From a virus (Duplodnaviria; Heunggongvirae; Uroviricota; Caudoviricetes): a stretch of DNA of 30,620 nt. Location of the stretch: the IMG/VR virus record IMGVR_UViG_3300032050_000049, positions 1 through 30,620 of that record. One strand, given 5' to 3'. A program made the translations under genes and the position numbers. Shown one piece after another: positions 854-4,039 of the stretch (position 1 is its first letter; each line of letters starts with the position of its first letter). The notes beneath the pieces are model-generated. The model had not been told where the DNA came from, searched no databases, and worked only from the letters and a program-made list of their open reading frames with translations.

Positions 854-1633
854 ATGACAGAAGAAGAATACTTGTTAAATCCAAATAAATGTAATGTTTG
901 TAGTTCTATAATAAAATACAATTCTAGAGCTAGAGAAAGAAATAGAAAATATTGTAGTTTGCAATGTTTTGCAAAATCAAGGACTATACTCTCTATTGAT
1001 GATTATGAAAAAAATCCATTAAAATGCTGTGAATGTAATCAGATAATTTTGTTTTCTAAAAAAAGAAAACGAAAAAAAGTATATTTTTGTGGCAATAAAT
1101 GTGCGGCTATTTATAGAGGTAGAAACTTTAAGTTAAGTGATGCTGGACTAAAAAGTTTAATAGAAAAACATAAGGTAATACAGAAGAAAGTTTGGACTAA
1201 AGAAAAAAGGTTGGAACATTCATTGAAAATGAAGAAAGCAGTGGATGATAATCCAGAATCTTATTCTAGTAAAAATGTTTGTGGTAGAGTTAAAACAATT
1301 AAGACTATAGATAGTTTAGGTAATGAAACTAGTTGTCTTGGTAAATGGGAATTATTGGTAATAGATTATTTAAACAAAAATAATATAAGATGGTCAAATA
1401 AGATTGAAGAAAATTTCCAATATTATTGGAATGAATCTTACCACAGATATTTTCCAGACTTTAAATTATTAGATTATGATAATGTCTTTATTGAAGTTAA
1501 AGGATATGAAAGAGATAGAGACAAAGCTAAGTGGGAACAATTTCCACATAAACTAATAATTATAAAAAAAGAAGAAATTGAAAAGTTAAAAACAAATAAA
1601 TTTCAGTTGACTTTTGAAAATTTGACACTATAG
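854..1633 (+). CDS. putative free-standing (homing-type) endonuclease: N-terminal CxxC/YCSxxC zinc-binding repeats plus C-terminal PD-(D/E)XK domain
   Basis: CNVC..YCSLQC and CCEC..FCGNKC repeats; C-terminal WE..YFPDF..FIEVKG motif typical of PD-(D/E)XK nucleases; located inside the tRNA array. Confidence 0.7.
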   Translation: MTEEEYLLNPNKCNVCSSIIKYNSRARERNRKYCSLQCFAKSRTILSIDDYEKNPLKCCECNQIILFSKKRKRKKVYFCGNKCAAIYRGRNFKLSDAGLKSLIEKHKVIQKKVWTKEKRLEHSLKMKKAVDDNPESYSSKNVCGRVKTIKTIDSLGNETSCLGKWELLVIDYLNKNNIRWSNKIEENFQYYWNESYHRYFPDFKLLDYDNVFIEVKGYERDRDKAKWEQFPHKLIIIKKEEIEKLKTNKFQLTFENLTL

Positions 1634-1634
1634 T
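1607..1634 (+). promoter_or_regulatory. sigma70-like promoter for downstream tRNAs
   Basis: TTGACT(1607-1612)-16 nt-TATAGT(1629-1634), overlapping the endonuclease stop; followed by boxA-like GTTCTTTTAAAA at 1653 and tRNA-fMet. Confidence 0.5.
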
Positions 1635-1667
1635 TAGTATATAAGATTTGATGTTCTTTTAAAAATT

Positions 1668-1750: not shown

Positions 1751-1844
1751 GGTTCCGTAGTTTAACGGTAGAACGCAACGCTTATAACGTTGATAAGCTC
1801 TAGATTTGAGCACGGTCTCGGTTCGAATCCGGGCGGAACCACCA
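1751..1844 (+). tRNA. tRNA with TAT (Ile) anticodon and long variable arm
   Basis: Acceptor GGTTCCG/CGGAACC, anticodon arm CAACG-CTTATAA-CGTTG, variable arm GCTC-TAGATTT-GAGC, T arm CTCGG-TTCGAAT-CCGGG, ACCA. Confidence 0.88.
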
Positions 1845-1865
1845 AATTTAGGAACTATATCGTGC

Positions 1866-1960
1866 GTAGAGAAACATTAATAATGACTCTACTATTCGTG
1901 AAAGTCTAACGGTAACTCTTCCATATCGTAAATGATGGTGCAAATCCATTGGAAGAACAA
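1866..1960 (+). ncRNA. candidate RNA C: hairpin plus acceptor/T-arm minihelix
   Basis: Hairpin GTAGAG(1866-1871)/CTCTAC(1887-1892); 7-bp TCTTCCA(1917-1923)/TGGAAGA(1950-1956) stacked on ATGG-TGCAAAT-CCAT, ending ACAA. Confidence 0.35.
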
Positions 1961-1968
1961 TTTTAAAT

Positions 1969-2045
1969 GGCTAGGTAGCCCAAAGGCAGGAGGCAGCACT
2001 CTCAAAAAGTGTACAGTGTCAGTTCGAATCTGACCCTAGCTACCA
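1969..2045 (+). tRNA. tRNA-Leu(CAA), short variable loop
   Basis: Acceptor GGCTAGG/CCTAGCT, anticodon arm GCACT-CTCAAAA-AGTGT, 5-nt variable loop ACAGT, T arm GTCAG-TTCGAAT-CTGAC, ACCA. Confidence 0.9.
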
Positions 2046-2061
2046 TTTTTTGAAAAAGCAG

Positions 2062-2089
2062 TTGACATCAGAAGATGATGTGGTAAGAT
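2062..2089 (+). promoter_or_regulatory. strong sigma70-like promoter with extended -10
   Basis: TTGACA(2062-2067)-16 nt-TAAGAT(2084-2089) with TG at 2081-2082; followed by boxA-like GTTCTTTAAACAATTTA at 2109. Confidence 0.7.
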
Positions 2090-2126
2090 AAAAGAGTAGT
2101 AAGTGATGGTTCTTTAAACAATTTAT

Positions 2127-2202
2127 GCCTATGTAGACCAACGGCAGAGTCACGAAACTTAAAATTTCGGTAGTACTGGTTCGAATCCAGTCATAGGCAC
2201 CA
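2127..2202 (+). tRNA. tRNA-Leu(TAA), short variable loop
   Basis: Acceptor GCCTATG/CATAGGC, anticodon arm CGAAA-CTTAAAA-TTTCG, 5-nt variable loop GTAGT, T arm ACTGG-TTCGAAT-CCAGT, ACCA. Confidence 0.9.
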
Positions 2203-2212
2203 TTTTTTGATA

Positions 2213-2228
2213 GTTCTTTAACAATTTA
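2213..2228 (+). promoter_or_regulatory. boxA-like element upstream of candidate RNA D
   Basis: GTTCTTTAACAATTTA differs at one position from the E. coli rrn leader sequence GCTCTTTAACAATTTA. Confidence 0.6.
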
Positions 2229-2514
2229 AGATAGTGGCGGAACAACCTTTGTATAGGGGTAACGCACAATAGTGGTGAAGAATCATTATTGGTTGGAGTA
2301 ATAATGTGCAGTGTAAGTCTATGGCGGATTGTGGGTCGTACAACCTATAATTCAAGCGTAACGACATCGTAGCTAAAATAAATGATATATCGTAGGTCGT
2401 TGTGGGAAACCAATCCCATCAATCGTTAACATAGAGAGTAATTAACTTTATGGATTGTGGATGAATAACGGTGCATATTGTGAAACTTGGAGGTAATCAT
2501 TAGTCCTTCCTATT
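2229..2514 (+). ncRNA. candidate large structured RNA D (about 285 nt)
   Basis: No credible ORF; helices 2265-2271/2476-2482, 2284-2290/2300-2306, 2360-2365/2396-2401, 2403-2407/2414-2418, 2420-2424/2453-2457, 2430-2436/2446-2452; possible loop-loop pairing TTGGTT(2289-2294)/AACCAA(2408-2413). Confidence 0.6.
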
Positions 2515-2525
2515 TGAATTTAAAT

Positions 2526-2598
2526 GCGGGTCAAGTGTAAAGAGGGCACGCTGGTCTACCAGATCAGAAGGCGAAATGCAAAGTTCGGACCCGCTCCA
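2526..2598 (+). tRNA. tRNA-Gly-like with ACC anticodon and atypical T arm
   Basis: Acceptor GCGGGTC/GACCCGC with U73 discriminator (bacterial Gly-like), anticodon arm CTGGT-CTACCAG-ATCAG, T arm CGAA-ATGCAAAG-TTCG. Confidence 0.75.
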
Positions 2599-2611
2599 GT
2601 TTTTTTAAAAT

Positions 2612-2704
2612 GGCTCTGTGATGTATGGTGCATGGGCAGACTTATAATCTGTATAATCCCTAGATTTGGGTGCTGATAGGGTTCAATTCCCTACGGAGCC
2701 ACCA
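2612..2704 (+). tRNA. second tRNA with TAT (Ile) anticodon and long variable arm
   Basis: Acceptor GGCTCTG/CGGAGCC, anticodon arm GCAGA-CTTATAA-TCTGT, variable arm CCC-TAGATTT-GGG, T arm TAGGG-TTCAATT-CCCTA, ACCA. Confidence 0.87.
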
Positions 2705-2806: not shown

Positions 2807-4039
2807 TTAAGTTAGTTCTCTTATAACGAGTGCTGGGTATATTGTGTAAGTATTATTATAGGTTTTTATACCAATGGCTAATATGTCGCTTGTATTATCT
2901 ATTTTTCTACCCAACCCATAATATGGATCCAGTGCTACTTTATCACCAACGCCTGCTCCGCCTGTGCCGGAAAAGTATCCTGTTGCTATGACTGTACCAG
3001 GATTTATAATGACATTACCTGTATTGGTTGTGGCTATTTGTGTGACTACTGATCCTGTGACATTGAGCCAAGTTAAAGGGTCTGTAACAGTTGGATTAAC
3101 TAGCAAATCCCATCTACCACTAAAAGGACTATTATTGCCTGGTTCTGCTAAAAAATCCAATTGTTCTGGTATTATTTGAGCGCATTTTGAAGAGATGCTA
3201 TTGTATCTTAAAAATAATACGCCATCGTATTCTGCTGAAGCAATTGCAGCTCCTGCATAATTTGCTGCTACTACTCTTTTTCCGGTGTTTTGAAAACCGC
3301 CTTCGCTTATGACTGTACTACATATTTGTGTCAGTAAGCTGCCAGTTGTAGTATTTTTGTGGGTAGTTATTTCGAATCTAATAGGCAAATTGGGATTACG
3401 TAGATACACTGTTTCTAAACTATTGTAGTTATTTATTTCGTGTACATAAATTACTATACCTTTTTGTACCACGCCATATCTTACTCTACCCACGCCTAAC
3501 CATTCATAATCTATTGTATAAATTTGTGCTTTATTGGTATCTAATATGTTACCGCTTGGACCTGATCCATTCATTTTATCTAGGTTCCAACTACTTTGAC
3601 TGACAAAAGTATCAGTTTTGATCTTATTAATAGTTTTTCTAAGTACAATGCCAAAGCTACTGCCACTACTCTGAAAGAAGTATCCATCATCATCATCAAA
3701 GCTACCTATGCTCTTTTTTATACCGTCTACTCCCGTACCAAATTTACTTGTGCAAATGACTTGCTGACTTTTACCCGGTTGATAAACAAATATTCGTTTG
3801 GTTTGTTTTATAGCTCTACTACCACTTGTTTGTGTAACTCTAAATGTGCTTTGAGCACTACCACTATTCCAAGTTACAGTAGCACTTCCTACTGTTTTGA
3901 TATCAAAATAGAAGCTGCCACTATCTACAATTTGTTTGCTATCAAATAGTGTGGTTGGATTGCTTACACGCCATTTGCCAAATGCATCTATACTTGGACT
4001 ATCAGCTGCTAATATTTGTGTTTTTTCGAAGTATGACAT
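2807..4039 (-). CDS. conserved phage protein, probably virion structural
   Basis: 410 aa ORF; motifs DAFGKWRVSNPTTLFDS, YQPGKS, WNLDKMNGSGPSG and DYEWLGVGRVR resemble a family I recall from aquatic phage structural regions (not searched). Confidence 0.6.
   Translation of the reverse strand: MSYFEKTQILAADSPSIDAFGKWRVSNPTTLFDSKQIVDSGSFYFDIKTVGSATVTWNSGSAQSTFRVTQTSGSRAIKQTKRIFVYQPGKSQQVICTSKFGTGVDGIKKSIGSFDDDDGYFFQSSGSSFGIVLRKTINKIKTDTFVSQSSWNLDKMNGSGPSGNILDTNKAQIYTIDYEWLGVGRVRYGVVQKGIVIYVHEINNYNSLETVYLRNPNLPIRFEITTHKNTTTGSLLTQICSTVISEGGFQNTGKRVVAANYAGAAIASAEYDGVLFLRYNSISSKCAQIIPEQLDFLAEPGNNSPFSGRWDLLVNPTVTDPLTWLNVTGSVVTQIATTNTGNVIINPGTVIATGYFSGTGGAGVGDKVALDPYYGLGRKIDNTSDILAIGIKTYNNTYTIYPALVIRELT

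Follow-up and report, generated by a model that had tools for sequence, protein, structure and literature searches.

By the textbook rule, long variable arms in bacterial transfer RNAs (tRNAs) are limited to those for leucine, serine, tyrosine and selenocysteine (Leu, Ser, Tyr and Sec), and the isoleucine (Ile) codon AUA is read via lysidine. The closest functional relative of the tRNAs described here is the TilS-independent tRNA-Ile(UAU) of Mycoplasma mobile and other bacteria lacking tilS, a class I tRNA with a short variable loop whose isoleucyl-tRNA synthetase (IleRS) evolved to accept U34 (Arg865) (PMC3575796). M. mobile required this altered IleRS for its UAU tRNA, and for the IleRS of Escherichia coli, tRNA-Ile2 with UAU is a 360-fold poorer substrate than the same tRNA with lysidine (PMC3575796). 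Here we describe two tRNA(UAU) genes, type A and type B, in a 30,620-nucleotide (nt) stretch of DNA from a Caudoviricetes phage (positions 1 to 30,620 of IMG/VR record IMGVR_UViG_3300032050_000049, hereafter the window). Each has a long variable arm ending in the same hairpin loop. From sequence comparison, we put the probability that both are functional AUA-reading tRNAs charged with isoleucine, and not devices for mischarging with Leu or Ser, at about 0.72. On this reading, the phage long-arm tRNA(UAU) is a tRNA with an ordinary task, that of an AUA-reading tRNA-Ile, and an unusual build; the family to which it belongs breaks the long-arm rule, bypasses the lysidine route and is common in phage tRNA arrays.

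We confirmed types A and B as real phage tRNA genes. ARAGORN placed eight tRNA genes within the first 2.8 kb of the window and gave the anticodon TAT to these two, and the Rfam tRNA model (RF00005) spans both from end to end, above its gathering score of 29, and treats 21 nt of each variable region as inserted. Their parts are given below, with scores for the Rfam model and for R1, a covariance model of the family built from 25 sequences.

1751-1844, plus strand: type A tRNA(UAU), 94 nt; ARAGORN tRNA-Ile(tat), Rfam tRNA 62.5 bits, R1 106.2 bits
1781-1787, plus strand: type A anticodon loop CUUAUAA, UAU at 1783-1785; stem of 5 base pairs (bp) at 1776-1780/1788-1792 (read from the sequence)
1793-1816, plus strand: type A variable region, 24 nt; linker AUAA at 1793-1796, 3' linker ACGGU at 1812-1816
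1797-1811, plus strand: type A arm; stem GCUC/GAGC at 1797-1800/1808-1811, loop UAGAUUU at 1801-1807, GAU at 1803-1805
2612-2704, plus strand: type B tRNA(UAU), 93 nt; ARAGORN tRNA-Ile(tat), Rfam tRNA 39.3 bits, R1 93.6 bits
2641-2647, plus strand: type B anticodon loop CUUAUAA, UAU at 2643-2645; stem at 2636-2640/2648-2652 (read from the sequence)
2653-2676, plus strand: type B variable region, 24 nt; linker AUAA at 2653-2656, 3' linker GCUGA at 2672-2676
2657-2671, plus strand: type B arm; stem (U)CCC/GGG(U) at 2657-2660/2668-2671, loop UAGAUUU at 2661-2667, GAU at 2663-2665

Beyond the arm, both genes continue with the 5-nt linker, a 5-bp T stem, a 7-bp acceptor stem and an encoded CCA, and the discriminator base is A73 (position 1841 in type A, 2701 in type B). 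Their acceptor, D, anticodon and T stems are not the same. Type A has a 7/5 acceptor/T branch and a class I-like D arm (4-bp stem, 7-nt loop), and type B a compact D arm (AUGU/GCAU, 5-nt loop) with U8 G9. A preliminary description of this DNA had proposed two UAU tRNAs that share the CTTATAA loop, A73, ATAA and the arm loop, and ARAGORN, Rfam and the sequence all agree with it. Its class II label for the arm holds in that each variable region has 24 nt and contains a stem-loop, but not in the geometry, the linkers of 4 and 5 nt and the 7-nt loop being unlike those of Leu, Ser or Tyr tRNAs.

The arm motif, CNC-YAGATTN-GNG, occurs twice in the 30.6-kb window against 0.02 occurrences expected, and 0 of 100 shuffles reached two. 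Other hairpins with the same loop were absent from the window and from 126 loci, except for one chance match, and the complement of the loop (AAATCTA) was absent from the first 3 kb of the window, which contains the tRNA array. Candidate partners of the loop within the tRNA were set aside: pairing of its AGAUU with the 3' strand of the anticodon stem occurs in types B/C only and was judged to be chance, as was pairing with the T-loop AUC, which is not conserved. Thermodynamic folding was uninformative; it gave type A an alternative pairing of arm and T loop, rejected as it is not kept in type B, and gave type B a z score of -0.58.

A search of phage tRNA sets for the UAU anticodon combined with the arm, foreseen in the preliminary description, yielded a family of 41 distinct members, drawn from IMG/VR phage tRNA arrays, metagenomes, four phage-like contigs of metagenome-assembled genomes (MAGs) and Lactobacillus phage LpeD. 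Three IMG/VR scans returned 18, 33 and 57 matching stretches, some of them chance matches without a tRNA. The 18 loci found with the exact pattern have a common syntenic array, Arg(UCU)-Lys-Glu-Met-Ile(UAU)-Leu(CAA)-Leu(UAA)-Ile(UAU)-Met. Type A occurs unchanged in 15 IMG/VR loci and type B in 6, and L002 has a variant of type B that differs by one single-nucleotide polymorphism. The looser scans showed that very different phages, with arrays of 20-30 tRNAs, also carry members. Among representative genomes of 185,579 prokaryote species there were just four tRNA matches, all on MAG contigs, three of them in tRNA clusters or phage-type arrays and one alone on a 1.6-kb contig, and a metagenome scan gave at least 50 more family matches. 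Searches by blastn with the first 4 kb of the window and with the type A tRNA found no close relative among cultured phages, and a short-query search led to phage LpeD (Herelleviridae). The LpeD member lies on the minus strand at about 138769-138863 of NC_048677.1 (L126 1459-1553; 80.6 bits), in a cluster of nine tRNAs; it has the arm loop CAGAUUA and no encoded CCA, and the record is without tRNA annotation. R1 sets the family clearly apart, with 72-106 bits for members and no more than 51 bits for any other tRNA, and recovered two members overlooked by ARAGORN, both with UAU. A literature search, with subscription journals outside its coverage, found no published account of a long-arm 7/5 A73 UAU tRNA architecture. 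The family is apparently widespread in phages and undescribed.

Two other kinds of UAU structure were seen along the way. In an 84-nt architecture (L068 2217-2300, L084 3691-3774, and also L146, L162 and L198), AUAA and an apparent displaced D arm come after a UAU anticodon hairpin; this architecture scores 41-45 bits with R1 and is not called by ARAGORN. The metagenome contig L168 (around 1278-1372) holds a class II tRNA whose D arm is of the Ser/Leu type and which has UAU and a G discriminator, a distinct allo-tRNA-like or Ser-like UAU tRNA.

The pattern of change in the arm indicates that selection on it is strong, in tRNA bodies and phages that differ widely. In 25 distinct sequences, cloverleaf and arm positions are paired at 96.5%, against 62.9% after shuffling and 34-48% when slid. 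Double changes occur at 19 of the 21 pairs, covariation is present in all four helices tested, and one pair of the arm helix (columns 50-60) is CG in 6 sequences, GC in 6, UA in 6, AU in 5 and UG in 2. The preliminary description had allowed that the arm might prove not to be conserved in homologues; it is conserved and covaries across relatives. Circularity was guarded against by two complementary types of scan, one with the anticodon loop, AUAA and T loop fixed and the arm free, the other with the arm fixed and the anticodon free. The arm-free scans found G-A-U at loop positions 3-5 in 27 of 27 distinct members, and every tRNA found by the anticodon-free scan had UAU. Arm statistics come from a MAFFT alignment of the 41 distinct sequences, which are related and non-independent:

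Loop position 1: pyrimidine in 41 of 41
Loop position 2: A 36, G 2, U 2, C 1
Loop positions 3-5: G 41, A 41, U 40; one GAC, in L174
Loop position 6: U 35, C 4, G 2
Loop position 7: any base
Closing pair: C-G 34, G-C 7
Second pair from the loop: all four Watson-Crick types
Third pair from the loop (equivalent to 29-41): C-G 40, G-C 1
Outer pair: G-C 18, U/U 15, others 8

The invariant core of the arm is GAU, at the anticodon place of a 7-membered loop, and a C-G pair at the equivalent of 29-41. The linkers have 4 (or 2) nt before the arm and 5 nt after it; the former is nearly always AUAA and keeps at least AA. Among the 41 members, the anticodon loop has U33 in 40, UAU in all, A37 in 40 and A38 in 35; A73 is present in each of the 36 that encode CCA, and the two helices of the 7/5 branch are 100% and 95.9% paired across the family. 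The GAC loop belongs to the second TAT tRNA of L174 (94 nt), family-like, with the arm loop CGGACUA and the T loop AGCGUUA; perhaps it is a copy in decay, or else a genuine exception.

Codon use and codon exchange both bear on the amino acid. In the 22 open reading frames (ORFs) of the window, ATA is the top Ile codon, with 248 of the 512 Ile codons and a frequency of 27 per 1000 codons. It is used in 17 of 18 AIFG motifs, as anticipated by the preliminary description, which had pictured an ATA-rich phage with ATA in nearly every KAIFG blade. The other tRNAs of the array match the abundant A/U-rich codons AAA, GAA, UUA and UUG, and in relatives AGA too. The phage tRNA(UAU) pair would similarly supplement the host for the commonest Ile codon of the phage. 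Substitutions were counted in orthologues from related phages with 60-94% protein identity, in comparisons that are not phylogenetically independent, and at changed positions the codons of the window were exchanged as follows:

Window ATA: Ile codons (ATT/ATC) 23, Val 14, Leu 8
Window ATT: Ile codons 22, Val 14, Leu 7
Window TTA: Ile codons 7, Val 3, Leu 44

Fisher's test separates ATA from TTA (p = 5e-8) and finds it no different from ATT (p = 1), and Ser is aligned at ATA positions once in 172. ATA exchanges like ATT and unlike TTA, and therefore means Ile in this phage lineage. The rank of ATA among the Ile codons and its Ile-like substitution partners thus support the earlier suggestion of AUA decoders for an ATA-rich phage. 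The companion suggestion of charging with Leu or Ser found no such support, given A73 throughout, the class I D arm of type A, the geometry of the arm and the behaviour of ATA, which is not Leu-like.

Bacterial Ile identity involves A73, C4-G69, U12-A23, C29-G41, G34 or lysidine-34 (L34), A35, U36, N6-threonylcarbamoyladenosine-37 (t6A37) and A38 (PMC9976931). Both genes have A73, A35, U36, A37 and A38, and A35 and U36 are found in 41 of 41 members. At position 34, the real anticodon has U and neither G nor lysidine; G-A-U is found in the loop of the extra arm only. GAU is the anticodon of the major tRNA-Ile, and the invariant bases of the arm coincide with Ile identity marks. In the real anticodon stem, 6 of 7 short phage tRNA(UAU) and 5 of 7 phage tRNA-Ile(GAU) have C29-G41, but only 7 of the 40 long tRNA(UAU) that ARAGORN calls do (one Ser-like non-member is counted among the 40); it looks as if this mark had moved from the anticodon stem to the arm. 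The bodies of the tRNAs are diverse and mostly class I, several relatives starting with A1-U72 like the short tRNA(UAU) of L001. When they were compared without the arm to 284 other phage tRNAs, nearest neighbours had low scores and no consistent isotype.

The phage tRNA can be pictured as an ordinary 7/5 tRNA in which some 19 nt (the linker and a hairpin of 4 bp and 7 nt) would have been inserted after the anticodon stem, ahead of a 5-nt variable loop of normal appearance. We infer that the arm may be a recognition module for a conserved host component, since phages with unrelated hosts have all kept it, as would be expected if its ligand were present in every host. IleRS would be the leading candidate, because an IleRS of the E. 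coli type charges a UAU anticodon 360-fold worse than LAU. In its most specific form, which we regard as possible but doubtful, the idea is that the arm would be a transplanted identity module, a pseudo-anticodon arm whose GAU and C29-G41 equivalent let any bacterial IleRS, an enzyme that as a rule turns U34 away, bind and charge a UAU tRNA. The topology is that of a five-way junction, where the UAU arm is connected to the D stem via 1 nt, as is usual for tRNAs, and the GAU arm to the T stem via 5 nt, in the manner of a class I variable loop, and two alternative stackings are therefore conceivable on paper. They could make a switch, with the GAU arm stacked under the D stem for charging and the UAU arm taking that place for decoding. 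If this is true, synthetase and ribosome would each read a different anticodon of one and the same tRNA. There is a class Ia precedent for the reading of arm-loop bases, in that archaeal LeuRS (leucyl-tRNA synthetase; Haloferax, Pyrococcus) recognises the tip of the long variable arm. To our knowledge, such reading is not known for IleRS, and the archaeal case concerns a different enzyme and domain.

Several observations weigh against this proposal, some on the handle step and some on Ile charging as such. As a handle for IleRS, the arm is missing the t6A37 and A38 determinants, because it has A at the equivalent of 33 and U at the equivalent of 37; its stem has 4 bp, not 5; the variable arm is not located where IleRS grips the anticodon; L174 has GAC in place of GAU; and the arm statistics are those of kindred sequences. 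The arm is not indispensable, because L001, L004, L014-L016 and L031 have, next to the long tRNA(UAU), a short one of class I as well. As for Ile charging, several determinants of E. coli are absent from the bodies, which have A29-U41, U4-A69 and C16, yet U12-A23, in type A and A29-U41, U4-A69 and G12-C23 in type B. The D arm of type B/C (U8 G9, short stem) faintly resembles that of the class II tRNA-Leu(CAA) of the arrays; the similarity is weak, and some charging of type B by LeuRS would be possible because it combines these features with A73. Finally, an unmodified U34 could read AUG too (PMC3575796).

The alternatives differ in how much of the proposal they leave standing. The tRNAs may well be Ile-accepting AUA decoders whose arm is not read by IleRS, and which instead binds or shields for another factor (a U34/A37 modification enzyme, a phage protein, a host tRNA nuclease against which it protects or acts as a decoy) or stabilises a weak core; we consider this quite possible, if somewhat short of even odds. 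The conserved surface is larger than GAU, because loop positions 2 (A in 36 of 41) and 6 (U in 35 of 41) are biased and AUAA is near-invariant, which favours a ligand other than IleRS. The variable arm also faces away from class I synthetases, and long-arm tRNAs with CAU, UGU, CGU and UCU anticodons are found in the same kind of arrays, so that added arms are maybe a general phage habit. Yet the invariance of the arm in phages with very different hosts makes a phage-specific protein a less likely ligand than a universal component of the host. The motif is nowhere else in the window or flanks and hence is no shared regulon hairpin, and the arm is tied to UAU alone, with invariant bases that match Ile identity marks. 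The protein-binding loop of the preliminary description is compatible with the evidence, except that the invariant part is GAU and not the whole CTAGATTTG. A wholly different role, as a tRNA-shaped regulatory or decoy RNA that would for instance titrate a factor binding tRNA-Ile(GAU), would fit the two anticodon-like loops and the other conserved structured RNAs in the array. We regard it as very improbable for molecules with a perfect anticodon loop (U33, A37, A38) on a 5-bp stem, a canonical T loop, a 7/5 branch, CCA and A73, and with an anticodon that fits the most used Ile codon of the phage.

The remaining alternatives concern the amino acid. A73 would fit either Ile or Leu and speaks against Ser: its presence in all 36 genes encoding CCA contrasts with the G73 discriminator of bacterial tRNA-Ser and with the G73 or U73 of allo-tRNAs. 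Charging by LeuRS, as of the nematode nev-tRNA-Ile(UAU) in vitro, with Leu then inserted at AUA, draws on A73, on the long variable region, on the D arm of type B/C with its weak likeness to tRNA-Leu(CAA), and on the fact that bacterial LeuRS ignores the anticodon (PMC9976931). It appears highly improbable in view of the exchange of ATA with Ile codons, as for ATT and unlike TTA, and of the class I D arms of type A and many relatives, some with Ile-like A1-U72 bodies. In addition, linkers of 4 and 5 nt and a 7-nt loop are unlike the Leu arms of the same arrays, and a Leu-inserting tRNA would have no need for a conserved GAU and C-G in its arm. Charging with serine, in the manner of an allo-tRNA, or with tyrosine through the long arm is scarcely credible. 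Apart from the extra arm itself, and the existence of allo-tRNAs with UAU (PMC5389517), nothing favours it, and besides A73 it has against it a 7/5 branch rather than 8/4 or 9/3, a 4-bp arm stem with a 7-nt loop, an anticodon without G34/U35 for tyrosyl-tRNA synthetase, and the single Ser in 172 at ATA positions.

The two genes are surrounded by phage DNA of 31-40% G+C. Further genes of the window encode 2OG-Fe(II) oxygenases, and collagen-like and Laminin_G_3 tail or baseplate proteins. Near the array are a virion protein gene and two promoter-like sites:

1607-1650, plus strand: sigma-70-like promoter region upstream of tRNA(CAU) 1668-1744 and type A; consensus match only
2062-2089, plus strand: second sigma-70-like site, upstream of tRNA-Leu(UAA); consensus match only
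2807-4039, minus strand: virion protein phrog_1645, about 30% identical to proteins of cyanomyophages and phage HMO-2011

A sigma-70 consensus scan of the window gave 17 sites, against 11.1 +/- 3.7 in shuffles. A GTTCTTTAA(A/C)AA-type motif is repeated at 1651-1667, 2107-2125 and 2209-2227, downstream of promoter-like sites and before tRNA genes.

Other tRNAs of the array also depart from the usual build. The tRNA-Leu(CAA) at 1969-2045 (77 nt) and the tRNA-Leu(UAA) at 2127-2202 (76 nt) have 5-nt variable loops and are class I shaped, the former retaining a Leu-like 3-bp D stem and long D loop, and the same array positions in related phages are held by class II tRNA-Leu of 84-89 nt. In this phage group, Leu tRNAs have lost the extra arm and Ile tRNAs have gained one. 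Long variable arms are also carried by tRNA(CAU) genes of 83-88 nt, whose acceptor stem is topped by a U1/U72 mismatch, at L001 7079-7165, L015 3706-3792, L019 9969-10055, L024 10038-10120 and L023 8793-8880; the window tRNA(CAU) at 1668-1744 has the U1/U72 mismatch likewise, yet a short variable loop. Within the array, an ORF at 854-1633 (259 aa) has a weak match to an endonuclease (phrog_945, E = 1e-5), and at its site L006, L008, L012 and L018 have a 73-nt tRNA(CAU) immediately before type A.

The array also contains noncoding elements. The roughly 400 nt between tRNA-Leu(UAA) and type B (2222-2603) are 75-97% identical across more than 20 related loci. Their consensus fold has 21 pairs preserved via double changes and ends with a multi-hairpin domain closed by 7 bp and followed by a U run; against Rfam they give a weak manA RNA match alone (14.2 bits, E = 0.24). 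This is probably a conserved structured phage RNA. The spacer at 423-853 is conserved over its full length in relatives. It includes, at 425-530, a wcaG-RNA-like match (30.2 bits, under the gathering score of 42) and, at 623-778, a tRNA-like element of about 155 nt that no tRNA finder calls; its loop is CUCAUAA, its terminal stem has 6 bp and it ends in ...ACCA. A mini tRNA-like hairpin lies at 1917-1960, with a 7-bp stem (UCUUCCA/UGGAAGA) around a T-arm-like AUGG-UGCAAAU-CCAU and then ACAA; the spacer that holds it is 81% identical in L029.

Should the charging of a UAU tRNA depend on the arm, nature would have provided in it a portable identity element. This would bear on the independence of phages from host tRNA pools and TilS, on the theory of tRNA identity, and on the engineering of orthogonal or codon-specific tRNAs. 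There is also a practical side, as annotation misses or mislabels such genes, exemplified by the unannotated LpeD copy and the two members skipped by ARAGORN.

Set beside the known systems, the phage family combines traits that are elsewhere found apart. With bacterial class II tRNAs (Leu, Ser, Tyr) it shares a total length of 90-95 nt and an extra arm, base-paired and placed after the anticodon arm and before the T arm. These, however, have arm linkers of 1-2 nt on each side, an arm loop of 3-5 variable nt, a 3-bp D stem and an enlarged D loop, whereas the phage tRNAs have a UAU anticodon, linkers of 4 (or 2) and 5 nt, a 7-nt arm loop of fixed sequence and, in type A, a 4-bp D stem and a 7-nt D loop. 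The nematode nev-tRNA-Ile(UAU) has both the UAU anticodon and a long variable arm, but nev-tRNAs are eukaryotic and nuclear, with tRNA-Leu bodies, and are leucylated in vitro (PMC3333845, PMC4300185); the phage family differs from them in its phage-array context, its diverse bodies, an arm with a conserved sequence of its own, and an ATA that evolves as Ile. The allo-tRNA(UAU) of bacteria and phages likewise has a long arm and UAU, was mined from metagenomes and is sometimes found in phages (Mukai et al. 2017, PMC5389517). Allo-tRNAs, however, have an 8/4 or 9/3 branch, a tRNA-Sec-like D arm and G73 or U73 (PMC5389517), against the 7/5 branch and A73 of the phage family. The likeness to the tRNA-Ile(UAU) of M. 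mobile is in UAU, A37, A38, A73, the 7/5 branch and, presumably, the decoding of AUA as Ile. What distinguishes the phage tRNAs from it is the 15-nt hairpin with its linkers, and that they must function with whatever IleRS the host has.

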